Below, in pieces: positions 577 to 53,480 of a stretch of DNA of 64,000 nt (positions are counted from its first letter, which is position 1; each line of letters begins with the position of its first letter). The translations under genes and the position numbers were made by a program. The stretch spans positions 154,421 to 218,420 of the forward strand of contig CAWKLF010000008.1 in the NCBI GenBank assembly GCA_963850425.1, read 5' to 3'. The stretch is from an uncultured Acidobacteriota bacterium (GTDB lineage Bacteria; Acidobacteriota; Terriglobia; Terriglobales; Acidobacteriaceae). The notes under the pieces are model-generated. The model was not told where the DNA came from, did not search any database, and worked only from the letters and a program-made list of their open reading frames with translations.

Positions 577-615
577 AGATTGACCTCAAGTCACGGAACG
601 ATACCGAAAAATTCT

Positions 616-632: not shown

Positions 633-680
633 TTTTTTAGGCTCCTGCGCTAGTGTATTGGCCCACAGACCATAGTCGGG

Positions 681-6169: not shown

Positions 6170-6171
6170 CG

Positions 6172-7293: not shown

Positions 7294-7316
7294 GGCGAGT
7301 ATTTTGCTTTAGCCAG

Positions 7317-32886: not shown

Positions 32887-34221
32887 CTACTGGCTCGCTT
32901 TCTCGTACCGGCCGGCGCGAGAGAGTGCAGCACTGACCTTCTGCATTTGCGCCGCGAAGCGAGGAGCGTTGTATGCCGATGGATTGTCAACCTGCTGGAA
33001 TAGCCCTTTTATCGCTTCTCGCATGTCGGCATCGTTTGCGCCTTTGTTGTTTTGCATGTAGGCAGCGAAGAGCGAGTCGAGCGACATCGCGGCCTGCTCG
33101 GCTGCGCGTTGCCCCTGCACCGAGATCGAATCGCCATCCTGCGCGATTGATTTCATAACCGCGAGAGCGAAAGCTTGATCGTACGATTTCGCATTTAATT
33201 GCTGAGCAAATTGCGCCGCAGTCGCCGCAGCGTGAGTTGCCGTGCTCGCAATTTCCTGAGGACTGCCGTTGCGTGTGCCCAGCAAGGCCGCCAACTTCGT
33301 GATGTCCACATCCAACTGCTGAGCCTTATCAGGGCTGCTCCGTTTTGCAATGTGCCGGAAAACCACGTACCGCGATTGGTTCCAGGCGGCAACTCCTGGT
33401 TCCCTTCCGCCATAACCAACTTCTTGCCTCCAGCTGTCTTCTGGCTTGGTGAGGCTGTGGTGGCAAGCGAAGCAATCGAGTTCACCGTACTCCGGCCAGG
33501 AAGAACTTCCCGCCCGGCGCGCCAGTCGCTCCAATCCTTTTTGTAGTTGCACGGCTTCCCCGACGCCCCACACTTGCACGCCGCGCCATGCGTTATCGGT
33601 GGGCTCTTTCCAGTGCAGCGGCATGACCGAGCTGAACAGGTTGAGTTCGAAAGTTAAGTCCGGATGCCCGGCCGCGATCATCTCATGGTCGACAAACTTC
33701 TCCGAAGTTCCAAGGTGACAGGCCAGACACCGCTCGCTGCGCTTGATCAGGTCGCGCGTATCATACATTCCAAGCTGCACCGACTTTTCATGCGGCCAGT
33801 CCTTGGTGGTATGCGGCCCCAGCCATCCGGAAGCAGGACCGTGACAGCTTTCACAACTCACTCCATCGACGAGTTCAAAGGTTTCAGCGCGCTGCTCGCT
33901 CGGCACCGACAAGGCATGGCACGCCAGGCACTTCTGCGACTGATCCGGGCGTCCAATGTTAAGAATCTTCCCGATACGCAACGAGACTGCATTGGAGAGC
34001 ACCTGGTAAGCGCGCGCATGCTTGTCCTGTCCCGCCCAGATGCTGTACTCGTTTTGCGATACGTGGGTGATTTGCCGGGGCTGGATACTGCCATGACAGC
34101 TGCTGCTGGCGCATCCACCGGGCCCGTTGTATTTCCCGGTCGGTGCGTTTTGCGCAGAGGCACACGAGAGCAGTACCAGACACACGACTGCGTGCCATGC
34201 CGGGTTGGCCTTGTTGCGCAT
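32887..34221 (-). CDS. Periplasmic multiheme cytochrome c (4 CXXCH + 1 CX4CH)
   Basis: 444 aa. Signal peptide [15 protein letters not shown]. Motifs CASSSCH, CLACH, CESCH, CLACH, CFACH. C-terminal helical domain. Its stop lies 2 nt before the GH63 start. Confidence 0.8.
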
Positions 34222-34448: not shown

Positions 34449-36122
34449 TTGTTCGACCAACTCAGGGCGATTCAGCAGAAGTTTGGCTACTTGCCGGCTG
34501 ATCAACTCCACCAACTAGCTGCCCGGATCAACGTCCCGGTAAGCCAGATTCATACGGTCGCCAGCTTCTATCCTCATTTCCATCTGACCCCGCCTCCACG
34601 CGCGGAAGTGAAGGTTTGCGCCGACATGACTTGCCACCTCCGCGGCGGCCCGGAACTTAAAGCGGAGCTGGAACAAACCTTCCGAGGCAGCAGCCCCGAC
34701 GACGTTTCCATTCGCGACGTTTCTTGCCTCGGTCGCTGCGACAAAGCCGCCGCTCTCGCAATCAATGATCGGATTTATTGCGGACTGGACGCACGCGAGG
34801 CCGTCGCCATCGCGCGCAATGCAGCAGCCGGCCGTCCGCTTCCGCCCGAACCCCGCGATCGTCCGCAGGTGTCCGTAATCTCCGACCCATACTCTGGCGC
34901 CCCTAGTTACTCCCTGGTGCGACGCTTTGTAGAGACACGCGACTGGAGCAGCACCATCGCCACCCTGAAAGCCAGCGGCCTGCGCGGGATGGGAGGTGCG
35001 GGTTTTCCCACTGGCAACAAGTGGGAGATCGTTCGCAACGCCCCAGGCAAAGCCAAGTACATTGTCTGCAATGCCGACGAGAGCGAACCGGGCACCATCA
35101 AGGACCGGTTCATCATGGAAGCAGTCCCCCACCTGGTGATCGAAGGCATGATCATCGCGGGACTTGTCACCGGAGCACAGCAAGGCATTCTCTACATCCG
35201 GCACGAATACGAAGAACCGCGGGAAGTCCTTCAGCAAGAGATTGACCGCTGTTACCACGCCGGATTGCTCGGGAAAAAAATTCTGGGCTCCGAGTTGACG
35301 TTCGAGCTCGAAATCTTCATCAGTCCCGGCGGGTACATCTGCGGCGAAGAAAGTGCGCTTCTCGAGGCCATCGAAGGCAAGCGATCCGAGCCGCGCAACA
35401 AGCCGCCCTTTCCGGGAACCAATGGCCTTTGGAACCAGCCAACCGTCATCAATAACGTCGAAACATTTACGTTTGCGACTGCCATCCTGGCGCGCGGCGC
35501 CGACTGGTTCAAGGCTCAGGGCAAGAACGGGTCAGCCGGGATGAAATTCGTAGGCATCAGCGGGGACGTCAACTCCCCCGGCGTCTTCGAAGTGCCCATG
35601 GGCACGACGTATTCCGAACTCATTCACGAGAAAGCTGGCGGCATCGAGGGACAACGGAAGTTGCTGGCCTTCGCTCCTTCTGGCCCGTCGTCCGGTTATC
35701 TGCCCGCATCGATGGTGGACCTGCCACTCGACTGGAACGCCGTGGCGGCTGCCGGATCCATGGTGGGCTCGGGCGCCATCGTTGTCTGCGCCGAAGGCCG
35801 TTGCATGCTCGACATGGCGCTCAATGCTGTCCGTTTCTATCGAAACGAATCCTGCGGCAAGTGCGTTCCCTGCCGATTGGGATCGCAGAAGATGGTCGAA
35901 ATGCTAACTGGATGGACCGAAGGCCGATCAGCAAGCACAGATCGCCAGGTTCTCGATGAACTCTCCAGCGCGATGAAGCTGACCTCCATCTGCGGCCTGG
36001 GTCAGGTTGTTCCCGTTCCCATAGCATCCGTCCTAAAGCATTTCCCGGAAGTGGTCGAGGAACACATCACTGGCCGCCGCTGTCCCGCCGGTGTTTGCTT
36101 CACGAAGCGAGGCTCGGCATGA
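34449..36122 (+). CDS. NuoE-NuoF fusion: NADH-oxidising FMN/Fe-S flavoprotein
   Basis: 557 aa, TTG start. The N-terminus has a thioredoxin-like 2Fe-2S fold (CADMTCH ... SCLGRCD). This is followed by GLRGMGGAGFPTGNKW (FMN), YIVCNADESEPGT (NADH), YICGEESALLEAIEGKR, and ESCGKCVPCRLG ... SICGLG (N3-type 4Fe-4S). Confidence 0.85.
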   Translation: MFDQLRAIQQKFGYLPADQLHQLAARINVPVSQIHTVASFYPHFHLTPPPRAEVKVCADMTCHLRGGPELKAELEQTFRGSSPDDVSIRDVSCLGRCDKAAALAINDRIYCGLDAREAVAIARNAAAGRPLPPEPRDRPQVSVISDPYSGAPSYSLVRRFVETRDWSSTIATLKASGLRGMGGAGFPTGNKWEIVRNAPGKAKYIVCNADESEPGTIKDRFIMEAVPHLVIEGMIIAGLVTGAQQGILYIRHEYEEPREVLQQEIDRCYHAGLLGKKILGSELTFELEIFISPGGYICGEESALLEAIEGKRSEPRNKPPFPGTNGLWNQPTVINNVETFTFATAILARGADWFKAQGKNGSAGMKFVGISGDVNSPGVFEVPMGTTYSELIHEKAGGIEGQRKLLAFAPSGPSSGYLPASMVDLPLDWNAVAAAGSMVGSGAIVVCAEGRCMLDMALNAVRFYRNESCGKCVPCRLGSQKMVEMLTGWTEGRSASTDRQVLDELSSAMKLTSICGLGQVVPVPIASVLKHFPEVVEEHITGRRCPAGVCFTKRGSA

Positions 36123-38281
36123 GTACGAAGCCGGGCGCTGAGATCCAGTTGACGATCGACGGAACCAGCGTCTCGGTCCCGACGGGCACAACCATTTTCG
36201 ATGCCGCCCGCTTGAATGGAATTCCAATTCCCACTCTTTGCCACCAGCAGAACGAAAATCCGGTCGGAGTTTGCAGAGTTTGCGTGGTCGATATCGGCCA
36301 GCGTGTCTATGCGGCGTCCTGCATCCGGCAGGCTGAGCCGGGCATGAACGTAAAGACATGCTCCGATCCGGTGAAAGCGGCGCGCCACACGCTCATCGAA
36401 CTGTTGATGTCGGATCATCCCGCGCCCTGCGCTCGCCAGCAACACTCCGGCGACTGTGAACTGGAACGGCTCTCGGCAGCTACCGGGATCAGCGAGGTTC
36501 GCTTCCCAAAACGCTCCACTCCACGCGGAAAGGACGATTCCTCCGCGGTCATTGCCGTCGATCACGAATCGTGCATCCTTTGCGATCGCTGTGTGCGCGG
36601 CTGCGACGACATCCGCCACAACTGGGTGCTGGCGCGGCGCGGCAAGGGATATCAGGCAGGCATCGCCTTCGACACCAATCTACCGATGGCCGAATCGTCC
36701 TGTGTGTCGTGCGGGGAGTGCATGGTCTCGTGCCCCACCGGCGCGCTTACCAACAAGCGCGTCGTCGGAACCCAATTGGGCGAAGGCGAGGTTCTCGACC
36801 CCACGGAACTTCTCGGCCTGCCGATCTTCCAGAACGTATCTGGAACCTTCCTCGAACTCAATCAGAAGGCTGTAGTCAAGCGCCACTACCGGGCCGGAGA
36901 GATTATCTGTCGTGAAGGCGACTTCGGCTCAACCGCTTTCTACATCCTCGAAGGTAAGGCGGAGGTTTTTCTCGCAAGTCCCATGGCGCATGTAGAGACC
37001 AATGGCACCAGCCAGGGATTCTTCAGAAAGCTGAAGAGCATGCTCAGCACCCGTGGACAACACCGCCGCAGCGAAGAATCGGATCGGCCCTTTATCCCCA
37101 TCGATGCGTCCGTTGACCTTCCCTACGACCGGCCGATCGCCGACCTGAATCCTGGGGACCTGTTCGGCGAGATGACCTGCATGAGCTATTACCCGCGCTC
37201 GGCAACCGTGCGGGCCAAGACCGATTGCGTGATGCTCGAGATGCTGCGCAACGTCCTCGACATCCTGCAGCGGAACAAGACATTCCGGGCGCAGTTGGAA
37301 CGGAACTACCGGGCGCGCGCTCTTGATTCCCATTTGCGCAGCGTGCCCATCTTCTCGTCGCTCACCAAGGACTTCATCGATCACCTTCGCGACCGCGTCG
37401 AACTCCTGCGCTTCAGTCCCGGTCAGGTCATCTGCCGGCAAGGGGACGTGGCCGACAGCTTTTATCTCGTGCGCATCGGCTTCGTCAAAGTGTCCGAAGA
37501 TCGTCCCGGAGGCGAGTTGATCCTCGCTTACCTCGCGCGCGGAGGATATTTCGGTGAAATCGCCCTGCTCAGCGGAAGCCCAAGGACCGCCACCTGCACG
37601 GCACTCGACCACGTGGAAGTCGTACGCATCGCGCGTGATGACTTTGAATTGATGCTCGAGCGCTTCCCGGAAGTGCGCGCCAAACTTGAGGCCATTGCAC
37701 AGGAACGCGCCGCGGAGAATCGCCGCCGCACAGCTCAGTTGCAGACGCTGCCAGTTGATCAATTTCTCGCCAACGGCTTGATGGAAGCCCAGAGCCTGCT
37801 GGTTCTCGACCTGGAGCGCTGCACGCGCTGCGATCAGTGCGTACGCGCTTGCGCCGATGCCCACGACGGCGTCAGCCGCCTGGTGCGCGAAGGTCTACGC
37901 TTCGACAAATACCTGGTCGCAACTTCCTGCCGCCAGTGCCGCGACCCGCTATGCATGGTCGGCTGCCCCGTCGGTTCCATCCGTCGCCGGAATTCGCTCG
38001 AGGTCATCATCGAAGACTGGTGCATCGGGTGTGGATTGTGCGCGAACAATTGCCCGTACGGCAACATTAACCTCCACCCGTTCCCGGTGGAACTCGACGA
38101 TCCCGCGCATCCGGGACGGAAAATTGCCAGCACACGCGTCAAAGCAACCTCGTGCGATCTTTGTCACGATCACGCCGAGCCCAGCTGCGTTTATGCGTGC
38201 CCGCATGATGCGGCACATCGCGTGAACCCGCCCGAGTTCTTCGCCGGACTCCTCAAGCTGCCCAGCGGAGCAAAGGGCTAG
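36119..38281 (+). CDS. Multidomain Fe-S protein: NuoG-N-terminal-like 2Fe-2S + His-ligated 4Fe-4S + 2x[4Fe-4S], two cNMP-binding domains, then a C-terminal DmsB/NrfC/HybA-like polyferredoxin
   Basis: Start placed at ATG 36119 (ATGA overlap with the upstream stop). The N-terminus has IQLTIDGTSVSVPTGTTIFDAARLNGIPIPTLCH..CRVC..C, SDHPAPC..GDC, and CILCDRCVRGC / CVSCGECMVSCP. The cNMP phosphate-binding cassettes are FGEMTCMSYYPRSATVRA and FGEIALLSGSPRTATCTA. The C-terminus has CTRCDQCVRAC, CRQCRDPLCMVGCP, CIGCGLCANNCP and CDLC..PSCVYACP. Confidence 0.8.
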   Translation: MSTKPGAEIQLTIDGTSVSVPTGTTIFDAARLNGIPIPTLCHQQNENPVGVCRVCVVDIGQRVYAASCIRQAEPGMNVKTCSDPVKAARHTLIELLMSDHPAPCARQQHSGDCELERLSAATGISEVRFPKRSTPRGKDDSSAVIAVDHESCILCDRCVRGCDDIRHNWVLARRGKGYQAGIAFDTNLPMAESSCVSCGECMVSCPTGALTNKRVVGTQLGEGEVLDPTELLGLPIFQNVSGTFLELNQKAVVKRHYRAGEIICREGDFGSTAFYILEGKAEVFLASPMAHVETNGTSQGFFRKLKSMLSTRGQHRRSEESDRPFIPIDASVDLPYDRPIADLNPGDLFGEMTCMSYYPRSATVRAKTDCVMLEMLRNVLDILQRNKTFRAQLERNYRARALDSHLRSVPIFSSLTKDFIDHLRDRVELLRFSPGQVICRQGDVADSFYLVRIGFVKVSEDRPGGELILAYLARGGYFGEIALLSGSPRTATCTALDHVEVVRIARDDFELMLERFPEVRAKLEAIAQERAAENRRRTAQLQTLPVDQFLANGLMEAQSLLVLDLERCTRCDQCVRACADAHDGVSRLVREGLRFDKYLVATSCRQCRDPLCMVGCPVGSIRRRNSLEVIIEDWCIGCGLCANNCPYGNINLHPFPVELDDPAHPGRKIASTRVKATSCDLCHDHAEPSCVYACPHDAAHRVNPPEFFAGLLKLPSGAKG

Positions 38282-38286
38282 TCCCC

Positions 38287-39207
38287 ATGCTTATCGATCA
38301 CACCCACCGCAAATGGCTCGTCGGCAGCATGGCAGTCTTGGTTGTGGCGGGAGCGACTTACATTCCCTACAGCCTTCGCTCGCCACAAGGACCGCGCGGT
38401 AGCAGTGTTCCGGGAATCGTTTACGGAAGCGTCGGATTTGCGTTCATGCTGTTCGCAGGCCTCTTGGGGCTGCGCAAGAAATTTCCCGTCTGGCGCATCG
38501 GACGGGCCAAGGCGTGGATGCGCGGCCATCTCTGGCTGGGCTTTATAAGTTTTCCGCTCATTCTCCTGCATGGCGGCTTCCACTTCGGCGGCCCACTGAC
38601 GCGTGTCCTGATGTGGCTGTTCGTTTTTGTCTTTGCCAGCGGAATTCTGGGAGCCGCCCTGCAACACTTCCTTCCGCGCCTTCACACAGCCCAACTTCCA
38701 ATGGAAACCATCTACGAGCAGATCGACCGGGTTCGCGGCCAGCTTATGGAGGAAGCCGAACGAGTGGTGAAGGAATCGTGCGCAGCTCTCGAAGGCGACG
38801 TCCCCAGCGCAACCGAACGGCAACGGGCCGCGGCGGCATCGGCGGGAGCCAGCTGGGATGTAACGGTTGCCTCCGGCATGCAAGTGGACGAGCAAGCGAG
38901 TGCTGAACTGCGCCGCGTGCTTTCCGCTGAAATCTGTCCTTACCTGAGTAAGGCAGGAGCGCGAACTGCCCGGATCGCAGATCCGCAAGTTGCTAGCGCA
39001 CTATTCCGTCAGCTGCGCGTGTTGCTGCCGGCGACCTTGCATCCGAATATGGACGATCTGGAAAACATCTGCGAAGAAAAACGCCAGCTCGATAAGCAGA
39101 ACCGGCTTCACAAGATTTTGCATGGCTGGCTGCTGGTTCACGTGCCCATCTCCTACGCATTAATTCTGCTCGGAGCATGGCACGCAATCGTGGCTCTGAG
39201 ATTCTAG
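38287..39207 (+). CDS. Integral membrane protein, 5 predicted TM helices with conserved-looking histidines (possible b-heme/quinone subunit); family not recognised
   Basis: 306 aa. Helices around WLVGSMAVLVVAG, GIVYGSVGFAFMLFAGLL, HLWLGFISFPLILLHGGFHF, VLMWLFVFVFASGILGAALQHF and LHGWLLVHVPISYALILLGAWHAIVAL. A ~150-aa soluble loop precedes the last helix. Spacing is 5 nt after the upstream gene and 10 nt before the next. Confidence 0.55.
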   Translation: MLIDHTHRKWLVGSMAVLVVAGATYIPYSLRSPQGPRGSSVPGIVYGSVGFAFMLFAGLLGLRKKFPVWRIGRAKAWMRGHLWLGFISFPLILLHGGFHFGGPLTRVLMWLFVFVFASGILGAALQHFLPRLHTAQLPMETIYEQIDRVRGQLMEEAERVVKESCAALEGDVPSATERQRAAAASAGASWDVTVASGMQVDEQASAELRRVLSAEICPYLSKAGARTARIADPQVASALFRQLRVLLPATLHPNMDDLENICEEKRQLDKQNRLHKILHGWLLVHVPISYALILLGAWHAIVALRF

Positions 39208-39217
39208 GCCGACGGCA

Positions 39218-40583
39218 ATGCTGCGAAGAATACGCACCACCAAAAAACTCGCGCGGCGCATCGATCTCCAGTACTTCAAGCACTCTCATCCGCTCCGACG
39301 ATGGCGATTCTGGCTCTCGGTAGCCGTACCGGTGATCGCAATCGGCTGGCTCCTTACCCAGCGCGCGCAAGGCGGCCAGAAAGCATATTCCAGCGGCCCG
39401 CTCTCGGCTTCCCACGCCGTTTTCACTCAGCAGTGCAGCCTCTGTCACGTGACGCGCAGCTGGAGCATTCTTCAAAGAGGTCACCGACAACGCCTGCCTA
39501 ACTTGCCACGATGGTCCGGTGCACCACGCCAACCAGGTGTTCACGCCTTCCTGCTCATCCTGTCACATCGAACATAAGGGGTCGGCCCGTTTGGCGGTCA
39601 CGTCGACGGCCAGTTGCACCCAATGCCATGCATCCCTTCATACCCGCGACGGTCAGCCACACTTTGCCGTGGCGATCTCCGGTTTCAATCGCACTCACCC
39701 TGAATTCTCTCCGACAACGAAGCACATGACCGACCCCGGCCAGGTGCGCCTCAATCACTACCTGCACATGAAGCCGGAGCTCGTCGGCCCGAACAGCCAG
39801 CGAGTTCAAATGGCTTGCGAGGACTGCCATCGTTTGACCGGAGTCCAGGATCACTTTCCGTATGCGGGTGAGTTGGCTCAAACCACGACCTCGAATGACC
39901 CGAGCATCGCAAAGCTCTCGCTCATTTCCGCCACAATGTCCCCAGTGAGGTTTGCGAACCATTGCGCGGGCTGCCACACGCTCCAGTTCGACGCCCGGTT
40001 TGCAGGGCAGCAAGTGCCGCACGAAAAGCCTGAATTCATCCATGCCTTTCTCGTAAAGCGCTTTCAGGAATACATCGCGGCGAATCCTGCGGCAGTTCAT
40101 CAGATCGAGCCGCCGGGCCGGGGAGTTCCACGGCGTGACCGGCCCGTCCGAATCGCGCGAAATGGTGAGGAATGGGTACAGTTCCGCGTGGATGATGCCG
40201 AATGGCTCCTTTGGACTAAGACCTGCAAGCAATGCCACGCCATCAACTCTGCCGGCAGCGCTTTGCCCGAGATCGTTCCGTCACAAATTCGTTCCCGTTG
40301 GCTGGAGCATGCGACTTTCGATCATCATGCGCACCGCATGATGTCCTGCACCTCCTGTCATGGAAAAGCAATCGAGAGCCATGACACAGCGGATCTCTTA
40401 CTACCCGAAATTGAGACCTGCCGAGAGTGCCACCGTGATCAGGCTGGATCGAAAGAGGTTGCGGAAGGGCGCTGCTTTGAATGTCACCAATATCATGACT
40501 GGAGCAAGGCCCGCAGAACGAAAGGCCGTTTCAGCATTCCTGAGCTCCGCGGAACTGCGCAATTGCAACCTCCGCGGCGTTAG
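39218..40583 (+). pseudogene. Membrane-anchored decaheme cytochrome c, split by an apparent +1 frameshift at ~39450-39470
   Basis: ORF 39218..39577 gives a TM anchor (WRFWLSVAVPVIAIGWLL) plus CSLCH and then degenerates. Frame 0 is open from 39453 and reads RAAGAFFKEVTDNACLTCHDGPVHHANQ..., with no start codon before the GTG at 39519, so the CLTCH motif would be orphaned. ORF 39519..40583 adds CSSCH, CTQCH, CEDCH, CAGCH, CKQCH, CTSCH, CRECH and CFECH. The total is 10 CXXCH. Confidence 0.75.
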
Positions 40584-40608
40584 GCAACCGCCCTCGAATC
40601 TCTCATCG

Positions 40609-43600
40609 TTATTCGCTGGCCTTTTGAGCGCCTGGCGCAGCTGGCGGGTCATCTGTGACCGTGAAAAGATGACCATCGCGTAGATACATTCTCTCCATCT
40701 CTGCCTGATTGAATGGACGCGAGCCGCGCCGGCCAAAAACCGCCAACTGGTTCCCACTCTCATCCACCGCCCGATCGCGATCAATGCCCCTGGAAACTGC
40801 CAGGGCCGCGTCGCGTGTCCTGTAACCAGCAATCCACTTCGGCGTGGGCCTGGGACTGAACCCGCTGAATGCGGGGTTGTCCACCGGAGAGAACAATTGC
40901 ACGACCTGCAGCCCGTTCTTGCCATCGGCGACGTACGCGAACAAGCTCGAACTGACCATACCCAGCTTCACATCGTTCGAGTCCTGCAACCGGCCGCCAG
41001 CGTTAAATATTTGATCCAGCTTTGGTGACTCCGGATGTTCCACGTCAACAATCGCGAGTCCCTTTCGTCCTGCCGCGACGTAAGCATACGTGCGTGCCAC
41101 GTAAAGATTCCGCGCATCGTCGATCGCCACCTGCCCTCCGGGTAGTGGCTTCGGCTGATCAAGAGCGGTCACATCGAGCACCTTTAACCCCTCCCGATCC
41201 ACCACAAACGCATAACGGAATTGAATGGCGATTCCCCGAGGTTCCAGGAGCGCAGGGGGTCCAATCTCTGCAGTGACCTTTGGCTGCAGCGGGTTGTCGA
41301 TATCGACGACGACCAACCCGCGATCACACAAAACGTACGCATAGGTTCCGGCAATCGCGATACGACGCGCGCCGTTCAGGATTCCGTTCGGATTGAATGC
41401 CAGTGCTCTCTTAAGGAAGTTGTTCGCTGGATTCCCATCGAGCAGTGTTCCCACTCCCGGACTCTTGCTCTTAAGGTCTGGATTGCCGACGATCACCAGA
41501 CCCTCATATTTGTCCGCCACGTAAAGAAACCCGTACATCAAGTGAATCGTCTGCTCCTCGTTTTCCTTTCGATGAGACCGCAGCGGGTCCACTCCTAAAG
41601 TGGTCGGACTTGCGACAGCCATCGCATATTTGGTTGGCAGATAAAACCGCTGTCCCAGTGGCGACACGGGAGCCGTCACAACCCGTTCTGAGATGTCCTT
41701 GTTGTCGACATTGGCGATATCAAAGACCCGCAAGCCGCCCTTGCCCATCGCGGCATACAAGTATTCGCCGCGCGCTTGGACGTCCAGAACTTCAGACCCC
41801 GCGTGGTGGTAGGCCTCCCTCAATTTGCCGTCGCCCTCGAGGTGCTTCTTATAGTTCTCGGGATAAGCGATCTTCTGAAAATCGCTGCCCAACACCGCGG
41901 GCGGTTCCTCGTGCTCGGTCACGGCAATTGTTTCAAATCCACTCTTCCCGTCCGCAACGAACACATAACGCCCCATGAAATTCATGAAGCCCGTGCCCTG
42001 CAACAACAGTTGGGCCATCCATGCATTATTGTCGTGGGCTCGCGAGACGTGGCAGTCCGTGCAGCCCTTGGTTTCTCTACCGCGAACGGTGTGCGGCACA
42101 AACGTTGAGAAAGCCTGCCCGCTGAACCCCTCCGCTGAGATCGTTTGCTGCTGGGAGTAGAGCCAGTCGCGATCGCTATTCTGCGAACTCACGACAACCG
42201 CACATGCGGATCGAACCGGCGCAACGCGATGCCCGGTGACCGTCCCGTCGATTCCAAGCGTGTAGATGTCGTCGCGCAATACCTGGAAGTTGTACGAGGT
42301 CCAGTTGCGCGTCGTCAGGCCCTCGTTGTGCAGCATGGGCGTCCGCTGGTTCGCGGTCATCGACAGATGACATCCGTAGCAAGTGGGTGCCCAGGAGGAG
42401 TGACACGCGTAGCACGTCATACGGCTGTTCGCGTGCGCCAGTTCCGACTGATCTGTGGGAACTTCTCCCCACGACACTCCATCCTGCTGGATGGTCTTCG
42501 CCAGCCGCGACTTCTCGCTGTAGTGTTGGTTGCCGGGCGTGATCGTATCGACAACCTGCACGACCTCCCATTCCGTATGCTCGTCGAGCATCGACCGCTG
42601 GTAGAGATGATCTTCTTTCCAGTAGAAACGGCGCTCTTTCCAGGGCGTTCGCAATGCAGCCAGGTTCGTTCCGTGCTCGGGAGCCGCTATGCCCGAAGTG
42701 ATCAACGTCGACTTCTGCTGCACGGTGCCATGGCAATCCACACAATCGATCTCAACCGCGTTCCGCGTCTCCCCATAAAGCTTGCCGTTGCCATGGCTGT
42801 CCTGTTCAAAATGGCAATCGATGCAGTGCATGCCCTTTTCAAGATGAATGTCCTTGAGATGGACAGCCTTGTTAAATTTCTCCGCATCATTGAACGCGAC
42901 CGGCTTGTCTTCGCTGTCCAGCAGCGTACCCTTGCGATCGTGCTTGAAGGCCGCGCGGAAAATCCAGCCGTGGCTGTGGAAGTCGGCAAACTGTGTGTGC
43001 TCGAGTTTCTTGTTGAACTCGGGCGTCCCGGTTTTTTCTAGAAAATTCACGTCGGACCACAGTCCGCGCACCGCCGACCCCTCAGGATTGCGAGCTTCAA
43101 TCCGGCTGCGTTCCTCTGCCTTCGGGTGCCTTTGTTGCATGGGCCACATGTACTTCCCGTCCATTTCGTTGTCCCACCACGTATAACCGAAGTACGTCGC
43201 TACCATGTTCGTGCCCGGATGGATGTGACAAACCATGCACTGGCTGGACGGAATGGACCGTGTGAACTGGTGGCGAATCGGATGGCCAGATTCGCCGTGC
43301 GGAATGGTAGGATCCTGCGTCGCGCTCTGCCCCAGGTTGCCGTACTCCGCGGATGAGCCGGAATGATCCTTGGATCGATCGTTCGCATAGACCACGTGGC
43401 ATCCGCTGCAGCCGCTGGCGCGATAGTCCCCTGGATGATCGTTCGTCCCGGGAAACGACAGCAGTGGATCGAGCAGTCGAGTCTTCTGCAGCCCGAGAAA
43501 TACTGGATCTGTCCGCAACTCGGTACCGAATCCGCGCTCGCTGAGCTTGATTTCCGGCTTCCCCGGATCTTCTTCTAAATCAGGATTCCCGATCTCCGCG

Positions 43601-44355
43601 CGCTTCCGTCCGCCGCGTTCAAACACGCGCAACACATTCCCCGGTTGTGAAACCTCCCATCGTTGCAGCGGTTCGAGGAAGGGCAAAACACCTTTTTTCT
43701 CGATCTCTTCAGCCGTAGGAGCTGGAAACGTCATAAGCCGCCGCGGTCGCCCATCTTTCCCGTAGCTCTCGCCGAATTGTGGAGACTTCAATGGAAACGC
43801 ACCGTTGTTGTAAAGCGCTGCTCCCCACAGCATGGCGCCATGAGTCATCATGCTGGTCTGCACCTTGCGGACCTCCGCCGAATGACACCCGCTAAGCCCG
43901 CAAGTCTTTTCTGCAACGCGAAGATCGCCAGGGTTCACAAAGCGCACATAGTCCCAATCCTCCCGTAGCCACTCGGTGTAGGCGCGCTCGGGATTAGCCG
44001 GCGATGAAAGCAAAATCCTGGGCTGAGGATGGGCTCGCTTCTTGTCTCGTTCGTACTCGGCCGACTTGGGACTCCCTCCCTGGCTCACATGAATCTCAGC
44101 ATTGCCTCCGTGACAATCGATGCACCCCAGTCGCACCGTTCCCGTCGAATGCATAGTCGCGCTGTCGGTTGAGGTATGGCAGGTCACACATCCGCTGGAT
44201 TTGCGATCCGCATCCGCCTGCGACTGCTGCAACAGAATGTTCTCGGGAGGAGGCTGCGATTGAGCGTGTCCCAAAGAGCACGCCGTAGCCAGGGCGCAAT
44301 GCAACAAGGCGAGAACAATTATTTTCAAAGTTCGCGAAGCGGCGCTCAGGGACAC
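40609..44355 (-). CDS. Large secreted multiheme cytochrome c (9 CXXCH + 1 CX4CH) fused to a C-terminal LVIVD-repeat beta-propeller
   Basis: The ORF track runs to 44805, but that overlaps the upstream gene (stop at 44555). I favour the GTG at 44355, giving [31 protein letters not shown]|QS as a signal peptide. The start is uncertain (alternatives 44499 and 44550). Heme motifs are CVTCH, CIDCH, CGLSGCH, CSGCH, CMVCH, CIDCH, CVDCH, CYACH, CYGCH and CTDCH. The last ~480 aa carry repeats such as [47 protein letters not shown] and NGLQVVQL. Confidence 0.75.
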
Positions 44356-44554
44356 ATTTTGGTTCAAGCACTTCTTCTCGCCCTTTGCGCATTCCTTAGC
44401 TTCCTTTGCCGTCAAGAGCTTTTTGTCCACGCCCGATGCGGAACCATTGAACGTCGCAGCCCCAGCGGACGAACTCCAGCCATTTACTCCGCCGAACATG
44501 ACGCGGAACGATATTCTTGCCGCGGTCCTCTTGATCAGTGCGTGGACCATATTC

Positions 44555-46772
44555 CTAAAATTGAAATCGAACATTCCCGAACAACGAGAACAGCGTCTGA
44601 CCGTTGTAGATTTGCTTAAGGCCTTCGGCTGGAACCAGTGCAGATGCCCCGCCTCGCACAACAATGTTCTCCGACAGAGGTGGCCGGTATTCAACCCCGA
44701 CTCCACAATCTGTTCCAATGCCGTGCTCGATCGGCCTCTGGAACAGCACCAATTCCAACGGTTCTGTCCGATCAAAACGCAAGTAGCTTGTGTTGGCGAA
44801 GGCACGCAACTTGGGCGTGAGATTAAAGTCAGCTCCCAGATTGAACACCATCACCCCAGGGTTGACGAAGTTGGCTTGCCCCTCTTCTTTATTGGAGCGC
44901 AAGTTCGGCAACAAACTTATGGGTGTGGTCAGCGCCAGGCCGGTCCCCGTCAACCGAATACCTTCGCTGTTCCAGAAGCTGAAGTCAGAGCCGCCGAAAT
45001 GCGTGTCGTCAACAATGGAGTCGAACGCGTGAGCCGTACCGTCAGTCCGGGCCGCGCCTGACCGGTTGCTCGAGTCGCCCGACGCATAGAAAAACGAGGC
45101 GCGGTATCGTGCCCAATCTTTGTCGATCGAAAGCTCGACGGCTCCCATGCGCGCGTTGATATCGACTCGACGACCGGCAAGCGTGTTGAAGTCGTCATGA
45201 CCCAGCGCCTGGTAGAACGCATGGCTGACATTCAGACGTCCGATGTGGCCGTTGCTGGCCCATCCCACGTAATAGGCTCGAATCGGGTGTGTACGAATTG
45301 TCCCGTTCACGACTGCCCCAATCGGAGCGGGCCGCACCAGGAAGCCGTTGTCGTCAAAGTGCACACCACCATCGTCGCGGTTGTAGTGGAAACTGAACTC
45401 GGTCGTGTACCCCTTGGCCAGGAAATCCTGCACGTAAACGTTGGCGACGTAGACTTGCTGATCCCGCTTTTGAAAGGTATTGAGCCCGCTGTTTGTGTTC
45501 TTCTCGAGAAAGTAGAACCACGCCAGGTTGTAAGCAATCCGGTTCGAGCGCAGATTTCCAAAAATACGAATGCCCGGCTGTTCTTCGGAAAATAGAAACC
45601 CACGGAAATCGCTCGTGAATTGCTGAATCCCTGCTCGAATCGAAACAAAATCGTAGTTTGGACTCAGGTCGCGCAACTTTGCTTCGACAAACGCCTCCTG
45701 CACCCCCACATGAGCATCGAAGCGATCCGTTCCCTTGCGCGGATCGATGTTGACGATTCCCCGTTCGCGCGCCTGCAGGAAATTCAAATTGACTTCCGGC
45801 GTAAAGCGAAACCGCAGATCCGCCGGCCGAAAGCTGGTGTCGCCTCGAAACAGGTCGAGCGAGAAACGCAAAGTTTCCGACGCAAGAAGCTTGTTCTCCC
45901 CGCCCAAAAAATCCGCTGCTGCCCGGATTCGCAGTGTCCACTCCGCTCGGTACCGGCAGCCGTCTCAAGTCCACGCCGGTCTGGCTCCTTCCAGTCACAT
46001 TCAGAAACCAGCGCTGCCCGAAAATCGGATAGTCTCCTTTGAGCTTGTTGCGGTTGAAAGGGTCATACCAGCGACCCTTCACATAAGGCGCGTCCGACTG
46101 GGTTTCATAGCGGCGCCACTCGGGCATCGCGACGTCCCAACGGTCGGGAGCCGGTTCAAAGTTCGCAGAGTCGGGCGGAAGGGACTCGGTTGGCTGGAGG
46201 GACGCCGATTTCTCGGGTGCAGGATTTCTAAGGCCTGGATACGCACTCCCTTGGGGTGTCGGGCCAGCGGGTATCCGCGAGCCTCCGGGCACTCCGGAAA
46301 CGCCTTTCGGTGGAGTGGCCGTCGTCCCTAAAGCCTTGATCTTCAACTCCAACACGACCAGACCGGCGGCACTCACTTGCACGCGTTCCACCACCAGAGG
46401 CTCGTATCCCTCGCGCACTGTGCGAAGTTCATACGCATCGAGGGGCACATCCCGCAGGCGAAAAATTCCCTCTGCATCCGTCGTAGTTTCAAAACTTGAT
46501 CCGTTCGATAGTGAACGAATCTTCAGCGCAACGCCGGGAACAGCGCGATCCTCTTCGTCGCGCACCCGCCCTTGCAAGCTGGCCTTCGCCGGAGTGGAGC
46601 GCTCCGGAATGCGACGCGCCGGCGGAAGCTGGGCCGTCGAATAGTCGGGTTGTTGCCCGAGCACAGTGCCCAAGCCTGCCAGGGACACGCATACCATTCG
46701 CAGTGACCACACTCCGATTCGCGCCCCAAGCCTTTGGGGCACACGCCCGCCCATCCGCACTTGTCCCACCAT
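44555..46772 (-). pseudogene. Outer-membrane beta-barrel protein with an N-terminal carboxypeptidase-regulatory-like domain, split by an apparent frameshift at the A6/T6 run 45906-45911
   Basis: ORF 45354..46772 is meaningful up to ...NPGSSGFFGRGEQ and then becomes Arg-rich nonsense. It includes a signal peptide and a QGRVRDEEDRAVPGVALKIRSLSNGSSFETTTDAEGIFRLRDVP CarbopepD_reg-like domain. ORF 44555..45907 continues in the other frame (GGENKLLASETLRFSLDLF...) as alternating-pattern beta strands ending ...LFGNVRFQF, with the C-terminal Phe typical of OMPs. Confidence 0.7.
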
Positions 46773-46918
46773 CCCGTTTGCAATGATGTTTCTTTTGGTA
46801 CCACAGCGCTATCGTGGGTACAAGATAACTGCGTGGCAGGACTTTGGTTTGTCAACGGTACCGACTATCGAAACAGACGCTAGCCGCGTGCTTGCTAAAC
46901 TTTTCTCAACCCACAAGG

Positions 46919-48466
46919 ATGAGCACTCCTATGCCTCAAGAAGCGAAATCAGAAGCTACTGAGCGAATCGGGCGCCCCGGCGACCCATGCGTCATGGTGA
47001 TTTTTGGCGCTTCGGGCGACCTTACTCGCCGCAAGCTGATTCCCGCTCTCTATAATCTGGGAAAAAATCATCTGCTGTCCCAGGAATTTGCGGTCGTCGG
47101 CGTTGCCAAGGATGCGATGTCCACCGACGATTTCCGCGCCAAGCTCAAGCAGGACCTCCAGCAATTCGCCGACGTGGAACTCGATGTCAAGCTGGAAGAG
47201 TGGTTCCAGAGCCGCATGTATTACCTTACCGGCGAATTCGGCAACGCGCAGACGTTCCAGCAACTGAAAGACCTGCTGGCGAAGATGGATACCGATCACG
47301 GCACCCATCAGAACTATTTTTATTATCTCGCGATCTCCCCCGACTTCTTTGGACCTGTAGTCGAGCAACTGAGCTCCGCCGGCTTGATGTCCGAAGAAAA
47401 TCAGCACTGGCGCCGCGTCATCGTCGAAAAGCCCTTTGGTCGCGATCTCGAATCCGCCAAGGCTCTGAACAAGCAACTCCTCAGCGTCGTCAGCGAGTCG
47501 CAAATCTACCGTATCGATCACTACCTGGGAAAAGAAACAGTTCAGAACATCATGGCGTTCCGTTTCGCCAATGGCATCTTCGAGCCCATCTGGAACCGCC
47601 GCTACATCGATCACGTCCAGATTTCCGTGGCGGAAACGGTTGGGGTCGAGCAGCGCGGCGGTTACTACGACCATGCTGGCGCGCTGCGCGATATGGTGCC
47701 AAACCACATCATGCAGCTCATCAGCCTCACGGCCATGGAACCTCCCATCTCGTTCCAGGCCGACGCCGTGCGCGACGAGCAGGCCAAGATCCTCCACGCC
47801 ATCCAGCCCTTAAGCGCCGAAGACGTTCTTAGCCGCACAGTTCGCGGCCAGTATGGCGATGGCGAACTCCTCGGACAACATGTTCCCGGCTATCGCTCCG
47901 AGGCTGGCGTGCCCCCCGACTCACGAACTGAAACGTACGTGGCCATCAAGCTGCAGATCGACAACTGGCGCTGGGCCGGAGTTCCTTTTTACGTGCGCAC
48001 CGGCAAGCGCATGCCCGCGCGCAGCACGCAGATCGTAATCCAGTTCCGCCAGGCTCCCTTCGTGTTGTTCCGAGACACCAGTGTCGAAAACCTCATGCCC
48101 AATCAACTGGTGCTCCACATTCAGCCGGAGGAAGGTATCTCGCTGCGGTTCGCAGCCAAAACTCCCGGCCCGGTCATGCGCTTGGGGACGGTCGACATGG
48201 ACTTCAATTACACCGACTACTTCGGCAAACAGATTAGTACCGGCTACGAGCGCCTGCTGCATGACTGCATGGTGGGCGACGCGACATTATTCCAGCGCGC
48301 CGACATGGTAGAAGCGGGCTGGAGCGTCGTAAGTCCGATTCTCGATGTGTGGAAAGCTCTACCCCCGCGCAGCTTCCCCAATTACGCAGCCGGCACCTGG
48401 GGGCCCAAAGAAGCTGAAGCGCTTCTTGAGCACGACGGCCGCCATTGGCGGAATTTTGAGAAGTAG
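46919..48466 (+). CDS. zwf: Glucose-6-phosphate 1-dehydrogenase
   Basis: Start placed at ATG 46919 after AAGGA. Has [28 protein letters not shown] and VEKPFGRDL. Confidence 0.9.
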
Positions 48467-50826: not shown

Positions 50827-50900
50827 GAAGTGCCCACCGGGGGGCTCAGTGATAAGGGTTCCGCGTACCTATTCAATTTCGACGATTTTGCTCTGCACAA

Positions 50901-51728
50901 TCATCCACACAGCTTGGGATTTGGATTGGTCTGGCAATTCGGGACTCGCGGCAAGGCCGATCCGCCGCTTGAATTCAGCTGCGTATATCCAACTGCCCAT
51001 CCCGTAGCCGCCGCTCCGATACCGATGATCAGGTTGCGCACCAGGTGCGGATGCACCGAGGGCAGGGGCCCATCGGGCACGTTCGTATCGGTCATGCTAG
51101 CCTGCAGTAGATCCGAAGACGCCGGATTGGATTGGAATCCCGCCGCAGCCAGGGCCGAGCTAATGACCACCATCTGGCCCTCAGATACGGCGATCGAATT
51201 CGAACTTGCATCGGCCTGCCCTGAATTCTTCATGATCTTCGCATTGCCCGAGGGCGTGACCATGACTTTGCCGCGATAACAAATGACCGTGGTCCGGTCG
51301 GCATCGTAACCAACATAGAAGTCTGTCCCGACCACGCCGATCACCGCGTTCGGCGTCTTGATCTCAAATTTTCCGTTAGGCTGGGTGATTTTCACGACCT
51401 TGCTGCGCACCTTGCCGAAATTCATTTCCAGCGATGTCTGTTGCGAAGCCGCATCGTGCTGCACCACGCGCAGCTCGCTGTTGGAGCCCACGCTCAGGAT
51501 CGAACCGTCTTTCAAACCGGCGCGCAGACGGCCCGATTTCTGCGTCTGCAAAAGGTCGTTCCAATCCAGATCGTCTTTCACCTTGGCAGGCTTGGCATTT
51601 CGCGTCGCATCGGGCACAAGCGCATTGATCTGTCCTGCGTGGTCGCCCGAAGCCGACTGACAAACGGCCGGAAATGGCGAAAGTAGCAGGCAAAGTAGGG
51701 CCGCGGTCAATCGTTTATAGGTATTCAA
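50901..51728 (-). CDS. Secreted FecR-domain protein
   Basis: 275 aa. Signal peptide, then RLRAGLKDGSILSVGSNSELRVV ... FEIKTPNAVIGVVGTDFYV. Lies upstream of, and co-directional with, the CHASE2 cyclase. Confidence 0.75.
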   Translation of the reverse strand: MNTYKRLTAALLCLLLSPFPAVCQSASGDHAGQINALVPDATRNAKPAKVKDDLDWNDLLQTQKSGRLRAGLKDGSILSVGSNSELRVVQHDAASQQTSLEMNFGKVRSKVVKITQPNGKFEIKTPNAVIGVVGTDFYVGYDADRTTVICYRGKVMVTPSGNAKIMKNSGQADASSNSIAVSEGQMVVISSALAAAGFQSNPASSDLLQASMTDTNVPDGPLPSVHPHLVRNLIIGIGAAATGWAVGYTQLNSSGGSALPRVPNCQTNPNPKLCG

Positions 51729-51935: not shown

Positions 51936-53480
51936 ATGAGACTCTTCCGCCAACGACGCCGGTTGCTGCTTGCACTCTGTGCAATATTGCTGCCCTGTTT
52001 AGGTATGATTCTTGTATCGTGCAGTGGAAGCGGGTCTTCAGCCACCAGTCCACTCCCGCCGTCGCCTGCGGTTCCACTTAGCGCCACCGAAGTGGACACC
52101 ATAGTCCAGAATGCGGTTGTATCCGTCAACGTACCGCTGGTCGTCGCGGTCTCCGACCGAAGCGGCATCGTGCTGGCAGTTTTTCAGACACCCGGCGCGC
52201 CCGCCACGGCGATCGGAAACTTCGGAGCAGTTGTCGACAGCAACGAGCTCGCAGTCGCCCTCGCACGAACGGCCGCGCTTTTCAGCAACGACCAAGCCCC
52301 CCTTTCGAGCCGTACTGTCCGCTTCATCAGTGGCATCCATTTTCCGCCCGGCGTGTCGTTCGCTCCCAACGCCGATTTGTTTGGCATTGAGAATACCAAT
52401 CGCGGCTGCCCGTTGAATGCCGCATTCAATGCCGGAAAAACCGTCAATCCCGCGCGTTCCATCAACGGCGCGAACCTGGGACTCGGGGTAATCACCGGCA
52501 AGGCTGACGTTATGGACAGCGATCCCACGGCCGTCAATCCAGGCGGTGTTCCTCTTTTCAAAAATGGACACGTGGTCGGTGGAATCGGAGTGGTGAGCAG
52601 TTCTACGAGCGTATCCGAGTTCGCCGCGTTCTCGGGAGCCGCCCACACGGGCTTCTTACCGAACGCCGCACAGCTTCCCCCTCCCGGAGTTGTCGTGATC
52701 GGCGGAATTTCGCTACCGTTTGTAAACCAGACAACTTTGCCAGCAGGAGTTTCTGCCGGAGTTGCCGGGGGCACGTACGTGGCGGGTCCAATCGCTGGGT
52801 CGCTTCCGCCCGAGGGCGATCTTGTCGGTCCGAACGCAGGTGCGGGCGGACTGACTCAGGCAGATGTAACTTCGATCGTCAATCAGGCAGTTGCCACGGC
52901 GGAGATAACACGGGCGGTCATTCGCCTGCCTTCGGCTTCGCGTTCACGCATGACCATCGCCGTTGCAGATCTCGACGGTACAATTCTCGCCTTGCGTCGC
53001 ATGCCCGACGCCACCGTTTTCAGCATCGATGTCGCAGTCGCCAAGGCGCGCAACGTCATTTACTTCAGCAGCACTGGCATCGCGGATATGCCGGGCGTTC
53101 CCGCACAGACGGCCGTCACCAATCGCACGATTGGTTTCGGAGCGCAGCCCTTGTTCCCGCCCGGAATCGACGGATCAAATCCCGGACCCTTCTTCACTTT
53201 GTACACACAGGATTTCTCGAACCCCTGCACTCAGGGTTCGCAACCTTCCAATCCAAATCAGAATGGCGTTGTATTTTTCCCGGGAAGTCTGCCGCTTTAC
53301 AAGAACGGCGTTCTCGTCGGAGGTCTCGGCGTGAGCGGCGACGGTGTTGATCAAGATGACTATGTGACCAATGCCGGAGCTCAGGGCTTTGATGCCCCCG
53401 ACAATATCCGCGCAGATCAAGTCATGATCGACAATGTCCGTTTGCCCTATCTGAAGTTCCCTCGCAACCCGCTAAATTAG
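51936..53480 (+). CDS. Lipoprotein with two tandem GlcG/DUF336 (HbpS-like) domains
   Basis: 514 aa. Lipobox ILVSC. Domain 1 has VVAVSDRSGIVLAVF ... GGVPLFKNGHVVGGIGV. Domain 2 has IAVADLDGTILALRRMPDA ... AVAKARNV ... GSLPLYKNGVLVGGLGVSGDGVDQDD. Confidence 0.7.
   Translation: MRLFRQRRRLLLALCAILLPCLGMILVSCSGSGSSATSPLPPSPAVPLSATEVDTIVQNAVVSVNVPLVVAVSDRSGIVLAVFQTPGAPATAIGNFGAVVDSNELAVALARTAALFSNDQAPLSSRTVRFISGIHFPPGVSFAPNADLFGIENTNRGCPLNAAFNAGKTVNPARSINGANLGLGVITGKADVMDSDPTAVNPGGVPLFKNGHVVGGIGVVSSSTSVSEFAAFSGAAHTGFLPNAAQLPPPGVVVIGGISLPFVNQTTLPAGVSAGVAGGTYVAGPIAGSLPPEGDLVGPNAGAGGLTQADVTSIVNQAVATAEITRAVIRLPSASRSRMTIAVADLDGTILALRRMPDATVFSIDVAVAKARNVIYFSSTGIADMPGVPAQTAVTNRTIGFGAQPLFPPGIDGSNPGPFFTLYTQDFSNPCTQGSQPSNPNQNGVVFFPGSLPLYKNGVLVGGLGVSGDGVDQDDYVTNAGAQGFDAPDNIRADQVMIDNVRLPYLKFPRNPLN

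Follow-up and report, generated by a model that had tools for sequence, protein, structure and literature searches.

What does a large multihaem cytochrome do when it carries a beta-propeller at its C-terminus and its gene lies directly behind that of a probable outer-membrane protein? The question is raised by two genes at positions 40609–46772 of a 64,000-nucleotide stretch (the window) of contig CAWKLF010000008.1, which comes from the genome of an uncultured bacterium of the Acidobacteriaceae (Terriglobales, Acidobacteriota). A preliminary description of this sequence had read the two genes as a porin–cytochrome-like outer module and as the outer half of the same pathway as a convergent inner-membrane operon. 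Our analysis tentatively favours a related reading, to which we give a little short of an even chance: that the pair forms a terminal module for electron transfer at the outer envelope, an analogue but not a homologue of the known porin–cytochrome conduits. The strict pairing of the two genes, the type of propeller and the precedents of other clusters that combine a porin, a propeller and a cytochrome are the observations favouring a conduit or surface function.

The cytochrome matched its initial outline closely. A secreted protein of about 1250 amino acids (aa) with nine CXXCH motifs and one CX4CH (CGLSGCH) had been proposed, and the gene encodes 1252 aa with these ten motifs between residues 60 and 773 (CXXCH at 60, 82, 320, 377, 515, 542, 652, 663 and 769; CGLSGCH at 156). 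Shuffling the haem domain 20,000 times gave a mean of 0.03 CXXCH motifs and a maximum of two, against the nine observed, and 20 of the 22 cysteines of the mature protein lie within haem motifs. All ten motifs are kept in homologues of 32–92 % identity. The CX4CH site is a plain CXXCH in some relatives; CX4CH is known as a benign variant in class III cytochromes, and a special catalytic role for this site was not supported, as it alternates with CXXCH among relatives. Every one of the ten motifs ends in histidine and CXXCK is absent from the protein. At least 12 further histidines outside the motifs are conserved in the haem domain, which would be enough for bis-histidine ligation of most haems, the assignment of individual ligands being putative. 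The start codon is uncertain, TTG at 44367 being likely and GTG at 44355 and ATG at 44499 the alternatives. The cysteine of the lipobox-like LATAC in the signal peptide is absent from the N-termini of the Terriglobia homologues, and a few distant homologues have lipobox-like N-terminal cysteines of their own. A family-wide lipoprotein assignment was rejected on the ground that the LATAC cysteine is missing in most relatives.

Behind the haem domain at least six LVIVD repeats had been seen by eye; seven were counted, at residues 801, 869, 947, 1009, 1050, 1094 and 1143, and the profile search proposed for this domain placed it far above its cut-off (Table 1). Members of both protein families, 31 of each, were compared with Pfam, the cytochromes also with NCBIfam, and LVIVD was found in 26 of the 31 cytochromes, the remainder being fragments. 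No member scanned matched NHL or DUF5128, and a sequence search of the PDB returned no solved LVIVD enzyme. The conserved C-terminal tail of the cytochrome matched no family and may serve in propeller closure or docking.

The haem domain itself joined no curated family. It matched generic c3/c7 models. The best named matches were ExtM (NF040943; 30 of 31 members, best 1e-27, 93.4 bits against a cut-off of 800) and ExtN (NF040967; 25 of 31 members, 44.8 bits against a cut-off of 200), which we take as homology over parts of the cytochrome, not as membership. MtrC/MtrF domains II/IV were matched by 12 of 31 members, probably in longer relatives, the DmsE-family model by one (about 1e-3), NCBIfam NrfA models also by one, and the choice-of-anchor-B-type model TIGR04312 weakly by 16. 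The enzyme-like octahaem fold at which the preliminary description had hinted received some weak encouragement. The family profile matched octahaem nitrite reductase over two short co-linear stretches, including the N-terminal dihaem (14.0 and 10.9 bits, E = 4e-4 overall), and matched NrfA over its haem-4/5 segment with a shared GKLY (E = 0.15–0.27); the single cytochrome sequence found nothing in the PDB beyond NrfA at E = 0.77. These stretches are suggestive of a distant kinship with catalytic multihaem proteins, but are not diagnostic. An AlphaFold2 model of the haem domain (31 sequences, 32–92 % identity) had a mean predicted local distance difference test score (pLDDT) of 48.5 and a predicted template modelling score of 0.33, and Foldseek gave only chance matches to the PDB (E above 6), an empty result that we attribute to the poor structure models.

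The partner protein was likewise much as first sketched: a protein of about 740 aa with a signal peptide, a CarboxypepD_reg domain and a terminal RFQF. It has 738 aa once one inserted base is removed, is then about 93 % identical to the intact 730-aa orthologue of locus L001 (ENA ERZ25039580 contig_12581, a metagenome contig), and has 4334 homologues at E ≤ 1e-5. Its N-terminus is a signal-like segment and its C-terminus reads LFGNVRFQF. The CarboxypepD_reg domain, which a linker of about 60 aa rich in proline, glycine, serine and threonine follows, is an accessory domain, as judged from its distribution: it is present in acidobacterial and Fervidibacter orthologues and was undetected in six of ten distant ones (two from Planctomycetota and one each from Methylomirabilia, Solibacter, Vicinamibacteria and a metagenome-assembled genome labelled 'delta proteobacterium').

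Whether the remaining, C-terminal domain is the barrel that had been claimed is less clear. In favour of a barrel, about 70 of 78 listed orthologue reading frames end in phenylalanine or tyrosine after an alternating hydrophobic strand (F.F, L.F or L.Y; beta-signal-like), and the domain shows about 16–18 amphipathic alternating segments by a rough count of the sequence pattern. It lacks cysteine and is rich in glycine, arginine and phenylalanine, a composition that, with the amphipathic pattern, is typical of outer-membrane proteins. A signal peptide and a C-terminal beta-signal with an aromatic end, as expected of a generic outer-membrane barrel inserted by the beta-barrel assembly machinery, are both present. 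The fold was not seen in the AlphaFold2 model, in which (30 sequences, 66–90 % identity) the CarboxypepD_reg domain exceeded a pLDDT of 90 and the barrel part stayed at about 25–35. Porin families in Pfam were not matched by the barrel domain at E ≤ 10, and MtrB_PioB (PF11854) was not found in 31 diverse barrel domains even at that threshold. Profile searches of the PDB with two barrel alignments (A1 and A3) matched no solved outer-membrane protein; MtrB is in the PDB as entry 6R2Q. A faint similarity to Alginate_exp was seen in four of 31 members (best E = 0.003, range 0.003–0.4) over about 210–230 co-linear residues. The Alginate_exp family comprises 18-strand exporters, and MtrB has 26 strands. 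The partner is also not TonB-receptor-like, a resemblance that the preliminary description had named as counting against its reading: neither Plug nor TonB_dep_Rec was found at E ≤ 10 in full-length proteins or in the 31 barrel domains. We conclude that the partner is probably an outer-membrane protein, with a barrel fold inferred from its sequence.

The two genes stay together consistently. With each species represented by one genome, relatives were detected in 589 of 600 candidate stretches, and the unit is encoded in at least 589 species genomes. Homologues of the cytochrome fall into more than 7500 clusters at 90 % identity (the best 120 at 74–92 % identity), and a library-wide HMMER search with the haem domain returned 2975 representatives at E ≤ 0.001, the full-length ones having 1090–1700 aa. 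All copies that bear a source name are annotated as 'hypothetical', and the exact sequence from the window is absent from the collection. Gene order was compared in 80 of the loci, which all belong to metagenome-assembled genomes of Terriglobia, Bryobacterales, Acidoferrales, Vicinamibacteria, Pyrinomonadaceae/Blastocatellia, Chloracidobacterium, Planctomycetota, Methylomirabilia and Fervidibacter, and in two further contigs. Upstream DNA of 2.5 kb or more is available for 72 loci, and in 71 of them the barrel gene immediately precedes the cytochrome gene on the same strand, a pairing that spans Terriglobia, Bryobacterales, Acidoferrales, Vicinamibacteria, Pyrinomonadaceae, Planctomycetota, Methylomirabilia and Fervidibacter. 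Wherever a locus reaches past the haem domain, this domain is fused to the propeller. One Gemmatales locus has the pair on its own, surrounded by unrelated genes, so that it behaves as a self-contained unit. Defence-type genes flank it in two distant loci, in L052 (13989–18659, minus strand; a SIR2_2-domain protein of 1556 aa) and in L081 (5596–7260, plus strand; FtsH ternary system domains X5 and X6), unrelated flanks which suggest that the pair moves as an independent unit. The single one of the 72 loci without an upstream barrel gene, L070 (positions 1–3205, from an Isosphaeraceae metagenome-assembled genome), has homologues of the NuoEF-like and iron–sulphur (Fe–S) proteins downstream.

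The same strict order, membrane protein first and large secreted partner second, would also be expected if the outer-membrane protein exported or anchored its neighbour in a two-partner or Slam-type manner, making the cytochrome–propeller a surface redox adhesin or terminal reductase. LVIVD and choice-of-anchor-B-type domains, the latter represented here by the weak TIGR04312 matches, are typical of surface proteins according to Pfam; the faint similarity to Alginate_exp hints at an export-type barrel, and the conserved tail of the cytochrome fits such a role as well. Against this, neither protein contains POTRA, TPS, DUF560 or autotransporter domains, no secretion signal was identified, and we know of no case in which a 130-kDa protein, folded and loaded with haem, is exported through a barrel of some 18 strands. 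We regard export as improbable.

An electron-transfer role for the pair has several known counterparts. As in MtrCAB, MtoAB and PioAB of Shewanella and iron oxidizers, the genes for an outer-membrane protein and a ten-haem cytochrome form a conserved adjacent pair, multihaem cytochromes of the inner membrane would supply it, and electrons would pass to the outer envelope. The pairing is in keeping with the porin–cytochrome-like character proposed at the outset, but the pair is not a member of the MtrAB or Pcc families. The barrel protein has no sequence relation to MtrB or PioB and is probably far smaller than 26 strands. MtrA and DmsE types are haem-dense periplasmic decahaem proteins of about 300–350 aa that thread a porin, whereas the cytochrome here has 1252 aa, a haem density of 1.3 per 100 aa across the haem domain and a fused propeller; no small, haem-dense, porin-threading cytochrome accompanies it. 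The pair also lacks the separate surface decahaem lipoprotein of MtrCAB. The Geobacter Pcc system (OmbB–OmaB–OmcB) combines a porin with a periplasmic octahaem cytochrome and a lipoprotein cytochrome on the outer surface, whereas only one cytochrome gene is present here and its lipobox-like cysteine is not conserved.

The ext cluster of Geobacter sulfurreducens (ExtI, ExtKL, ExtM, ExtN and ExtOPQS) similarly brings together a porin-like protein and large multihaem cytochromes, among them the best named, though far sub-threshold, relatives of the haem domain. Its porin ExtI is needed for selenite and tellurite reduction, and ExtM and ExtN are uncharacterized cytochromes encoded beside a bc-type complex (PMC5877670). 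Here, unlike in that cluster, ExtM-like and ExtN-like stretches share one polypeptide with a propeller, and the Rieske/cytochrome b complex, the rhodanese and the selenoprotein have no counterpart. Closer in taxonomy is the EET1 Porin-NHL-CytC cluster, also of the order Terriglobales and also composed of an outer-membrane protein, a beta-propeller and a multihaem cytochrome; it has transcripts in peat and was put forward as a system for extracellular electron transfer (bioRxiv 10.64898/2026.05.27.727921). EET1 has a six-bladed NHL/DUF5128 propeller as a protein of its own and a porin that models as MtrB-like (Fiorito et al. 2026, bioRxiv 10.64898/2026.05.27.727921), whereas in the present pair a seven-repeat LVIVD propeller forms part of a large, haem-poor cytochrome, and its membrane-protein partner has no similarity to MtrB. 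The modelled cytochromes of all four systems in that study are compact, named types (OmcE-, MtrC-, MtrA- or OcwA-like; bioRxiv 10.64898/2026.05.27.727921). Since its selection was for haem-dense, compact cytochromes, it would probably have passed over the present one. NHL beta-propeller proteins also accompany multihaem cytochromes in Desulfovibrio ferrophilus, where they are proposed to stabilize an outer-membrane cytochrome complex (PMC5815863); these are separate proteins with an NHL propeller, and no conserved partner barrel of the family described here goes with them. Our literature searches found no published description of an LVIVD–cytochrome fusion family: the LVIVD protein reported from Tenderiales is a separate, non-cytochrome protein, and a paper on Candidatus Acidoferrum gives no gene-level detail.

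If the pair is a terminal module, it requires a source of electrons, and in this lineage the convergent operon would offer one. The stop codon of the cytochrome gene lies 25 nucleotides (nt) from that of the operon, as had been noted beforehand. The operon encodes a NuoE–NuoF fusion, an Fe–S protein with cyclic-nucleotide-binding domains (Pfam 2.3e-41, three stretches), a membrane protein and a membrane-anchored ten-haem cytochrome. The 306-aa membrane protein has histidines at positions 81 and 95 and at 285 and 299, on two predicted helices and at least 91 % conserved among 21 homologues; their spacing of 14 residues is that of the dihaem cytochromes b. From this pattern it is a probable dihaem cytochrome b that would carry electrons across the inner membrane. 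A five-haem, cytochrome c554-like probable lipoprotein, whose first haem motif is CX4CH (CASSSCH), is encoded divergently from the NuoEF-like gene. The two nearly always occur together, and the c554-like protein may be a relay, either periplasmic or tethered to the outer membrane.

That the two operons might never co-occur in related genomes had been raised as an argument against a shared pathway, and it did not hold: in 20 of the 27 closer loci (at least 60 % identity) the pair has the NADH/Fe–S/membrane/cytochrome operon within 10 kb. Co-conservation is nevertheless confined largely to this group, as only two of 20 distant loci carry the operon within the same distance. Because it is missing near the pair in the other 18, the description of the pair as the outer half of the same pathway is valid for this lineage and not for the family. 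Twelve loci, mostly from Pyrinomonadaceae, instead encode two or three c7-type multihaem cytochromes, which by our reading of one sequence are membrane-anchored. The outer pair is constant and the electron-input module is lineage-variable.

On this basis we propose a route for the present lineage. In the cytoplasm, the NuoEF-like flavoprotein would oxidize NADH and pass electrons to the Fe–S subunit with its cyclic-nucleotide-binding domains. They would then cross the inner membrane by way of the probable dihaem-b membrane protein and reach the membrane-anchored ten-haem cytochrome, and probably also the c554-like lipoprotein. From there the decahaem–propeller protein, held at the barrel, would receive them and deliver them to a final acceptor at or beyond the outer membrane, which could be Fe(III), Mn(IV), or humic or particulate organic matter. 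An outward flow is suggested because the NADH module has no ion-pumping subunits, and uphill reduction of NAD+ by an external donor would lack an energy source. The intermediate carriers provide 15 c-haems between the membrane and the terminal protein, which argues for a terminal protein at the outer membrane, far from the inner membrane, and held by or working through its partner. This is, to our knowledge, more than the known periplasmic reductases need.

Several observations weigh against placing the pair in the outer envelope in this way. No model shows the barrel (pLDDT 35 for that part). By the rough count it would have only some 16–18 strands, with Alginate_exp as its only family hint, and so small a barrel could not enclose a cytochrome as the 26-strand MtrB does. 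At 1.3 haems per 100 aa of haem domain the cytochrome is bulky and haem-poor for a 'wire', and it has no conserved lipid anchor, so that its default location after Sec export would be the periplasm. It is also unusually conserved for a surface protein: between the window and locus L002 it is 80 % identical, when the barrel protein reaches 69 %, the inner cytochrome 59 % and glucose-6-phosphate dehydrogenase 77 %, a pattern more typical of enzymes. Its weak co-linear similarity to catalytic multihaem enzymes points the same way. Finally, no cultured host occurs among the 80 loci compared, the named database entries or the listed cluster members.

Much of this would suit a periplasmic multihaem oxidoreductase with an active site at a haem or in the propeller that would take a soluble or polymeric substrate, served by its partner as a channel for substrate or product. 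Cytochrome-plus-propeller enzymes do exist, for example cd1 nitrite reductase and hydrazine synthase. The cytochrome shares a low haem density and large non-haem inserts with NrfA, octahaem nitrite reductase, OTR and HAO, the two short co-linear matches to this group are weak, and one family member matched NrfA models in NCBIfam. Its conservation is comparable with that of cytoplasmic enzymes, no lipobox is conserved, and the probably small, faintly Alginate_exp-like barrel domain would resemble a substrate porin serving a periplasmic reductase, which is one reading of ExtI. The nearest named relatives, ExtM and ExtN, sit in the very cluster whose porin is needed for selenite and tellurite reduction (PMC5877670). 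However, the similarity to these enzymes reaches only E = 4e-4 to 0.3, and the NrfA-like stretches cover electron-transfer haems only, dihaem packing motifs being common in non-catalytic cytochromes. There is no CXXCK or other recognizable catalytic-haem signature and no identifiable catalytic haem, and the conserved non-motif histidines are numerous enough to ligate most haems on both sides. The ten haems, the added propeller and the conserved outer-membrane partner also set the cytochrome apart from these enzymes; no LVIVD enzyme of solved structure was recovered by sequence, and the supply of 15 intermediate c-haems exceeds what such a reductase would need. We therefore consider a periplasmic enzyme possible but somewhat doubtful, and retain the outer-envelope electron-transfer module as our preferred reading.

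The wider neighbourhood contains further genes that could bear on function. An HbpS/GlcG-like lipoprotein gene ranks third in conservation among the neighbours: of the 59 loci whose upstream DNA extends for 5.5 kb or more, 45 have it. Most other lineages have this gene directly beside the barrel gene and divergent from it, and in loci L016, L019, L022 and L052 such genes lie at about 4700–7300 on the minus strand. In the 12 loci with c7-type cytochromes these share a strand with the HbpS-like gene, and in one Pyrinomonadaceae locus it adjoins three multihaem cytochrome genes. A few kb from the NADH module the window encodes a CHASE2 adenylate/guanylate cyclase and a FecR-domain partner; all loci in which a close homologue of the cyclase (at least 65 % identity) was seen also have the NADH/Fe–S operon. 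Together with the binding domains of the Fe–S subunit, the cyclase may point to cyclic-nucleotide gating of electron export. The glucose-6-phosphate dehydrogenase gene adjoins the barrel gene and has close homologues in seven loci; it may be there by mere proximity, or it may supply the NADH-linked module with reducing power.

The HbpS-like ('haem-degrading') lipoprotein and the nearby FecR-domain gene would be compatible with nutrient acquisition, that is, a reductive uptake of iron or haem through the barrel protein, and CarboxypepD_reg domains are common at the N-termini of TonB-dependent transporters. Yet Plug and TonB_dep_Rec domains are absent from the barrel protein, the FecR gene forms a pair with the CHASE2 cyclase, found only in a subset of loci that all have the NADH/Fe–S operon, and an NADH-fed chain of 35 c-haems would seem out of proportion for assimilatory iron reduction. 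We consider nutrient acquisition very improbable.

A last question is whether the cluster is functional in this genome, as two of its genes are interrupted. Without correction the barrel gene reads as two overlapping open reading frames, 45354..46772 (472 aa) and 44555..45907 (450 aa), and an insertion at about 39458 splits the inner ten-haem cytochrome gene into 119 and 354 aa in comparison with L001; removal of the base restores a 454-aa protein with ten CXXCH motifs. Across 30602–54525 (about 24 kb) the window is 92 % identical to L001 at the DNA level with the same gene order, and the tested genes are 90–99 % identical in protein sequence, again in the same order, to L001 and L004 (CAVTMJ010000020.1, uncultured Acidobacteriota bacterium). 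Downstream of the insertions, differences from L001 at codon positions 1, 2 and 3 of the corrected frames number 16, 5 and 113 in the barrel gene and 27, 21 and 65 in the inner cytochrome gene, and neither frame has further stops or indels. The third-position bias in the barrel gene therefore indicates that the corrected frame was under selection until very recently and that the insertion is recent or an assembly error. A long-standing pseudogene was rejected on these statistics, and a programmed frameshift was rejected as relatives read straight through. Close relatives on other long contigs are split as well (458-aa and 604-aa members of the P0001 90 % cluster), which also suggests assembly errors in such data, and we lean towards this explanation over fresh mutation. 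Two frameshifts in about 24 kb of aligned DNA, both inside the cluster and neither in a homopolymer, could instead mean that the cluster is decaying or inactive here. The persistence of the bias past both insertions and the split relatives elsewhere speak against decay, and the cluster makes up about half of the aligned coding DNA, so that two random hits would both fall inside it with a probability of about 0.3 by our own estimate; real mutations seem unlikely. No sigma-70-like promoter was found in 40300–47100 and no terminator-like site in the gap between the convergent stops. The sole minus-strand terminator-like match near the spacer has its stem at 44592–44572, at the 3' end of the barrel gene, with its tail in the spacer. 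The coordinates of all features are collected in Table 1.

Table 1. Positions of the gene pair, its parts and its neighbours within the window
Feature	Position	Strand	Basis or remark
Probable outer-membrane protein gene	44555..46772	-	738 aa after removal of one base; uncorrected, two overlapping open reading frames
CarboxypepD_reg (Ig-like) domain of barrel protein	46350..46583	-	Pfam PF13620, 1.1e-14, 54.9 bits vs cut-off 32.3
C-terminal ~530-aa domain, probable beta-barrel	44558..46148	-	PDRWD motif to ...FGNVRFQF; conserved in 74 loci
1-nt insertion breaking barrel gene	45886	-	Alignment to L001; plus-strand G in GCAA[G]AAGC, no homopolymer
Spacer, barrel stop to likely cytochrome start, 187 nt	44368..44554	-	Does not align with L001
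Secreted decahaem cytochrome with LVIVD propeller, 1252 aa	40609..44367	-	Stop 40609-40611; motifs and homologues
Signal peptide of cytochrome	44263..44367	-	Lipobox-like LATAC
Ten-haem domain, residues 36-785	42013..44262	-	1.3 haems per 100 aa
LVIVD propeller, residues ~786-1160	40888..42012	-	Pfam PF08309, E = 2.2e-26, 91.4 bits vs cut-off 20.2
Conserved C-terminal tail of cytochrome, ~90 aa	40612..40887	-	Consensus of alignment A2; includes ...[26 protein letters not shown]...
Gap between convergent stops, 25 nt	40584..40608	.	Plus-strand TAG 40581-40583; cytochrome stop 40609-40611
Convergent operon, four genes	34449..40583	+	Pfam and NCBIfam; same order in L001 and L002
NuoE-NuoF fusion	34449-36122	+	Pfam/NCBIfam
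HoxU/NuoG-like Fe-S protein, cyclic-nucleotide-binding domains and C-terminal polyferredoxin	36095-38281	+	Pfam/NCBIfam
Membrane protein, 306 aa, no family match	38287-39207	+	Four conserved His
Membrane-anchored 10-haem cytochrome	39218-40583	+	1-nt insertion at ~39458
Five-haem cytochrome c554-like probable lipoprotein	32887..34221	-	Pfam Cytochrome_C554, 6.3e-12; lipobox-like LLSC
Glucose-6-phosphate dehydrogenase gene	46844-48466	+	
CHASE2 adenylate/guanylate cyclase and FecR-domain partner	48469-51728	-	
HbpS/GlcG-like lipoprotein	51936..53480	+	Pfam HbpS-like, 2.3e-22; lipobox LVSC

In summary, the principle of the pair is familiar; its parts and the haem–propeller fusion are new, and the family is large. 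A wider proposal, more speculative than the outer-envelope module itself and one that we would at present rather doubt, is that the pair is the constant terminal part of an unrecognized electron-export system widespread among soil bacteria. In Terriglobales this system would be fed independently of quinones, from NADH through flavin mononucleotide and Fe–S centres, a dihaem b as in NADPH oxidases and 15 c-haems, with the cyclic-nucleotide-binding domains and the CHASE2 cyclase as its gate. The decahaem–LVIVD protein would then represent a new class of terminal reductase, which would serve insoluble or humic acceptors at the outer membrane or produce extracellular reactive oxygen species, and the mostly aerobic Acidobacteria would gain a regulated way of shedding surplus reducing power. 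Few groups of soil bacteria are as abundant as the Acidobacteriota, and their disposal of electrons at low oxygen is poorly understood. If the cytochrome is instead a periplasmic enzyme, it would found a new class of multihaem–propeller enzymes, probably acting on a common substrate; under either reading the strict pairing with a membrane protein provides a genetic and biochemical handle. If the pair is an outer-envelope terminal module, it would constitute a major unrecognized route of iron, manganese or organic-matter reduction in soils and peat, with a marker gene that current screens, which favour haem-dense cytochromes, have missed.

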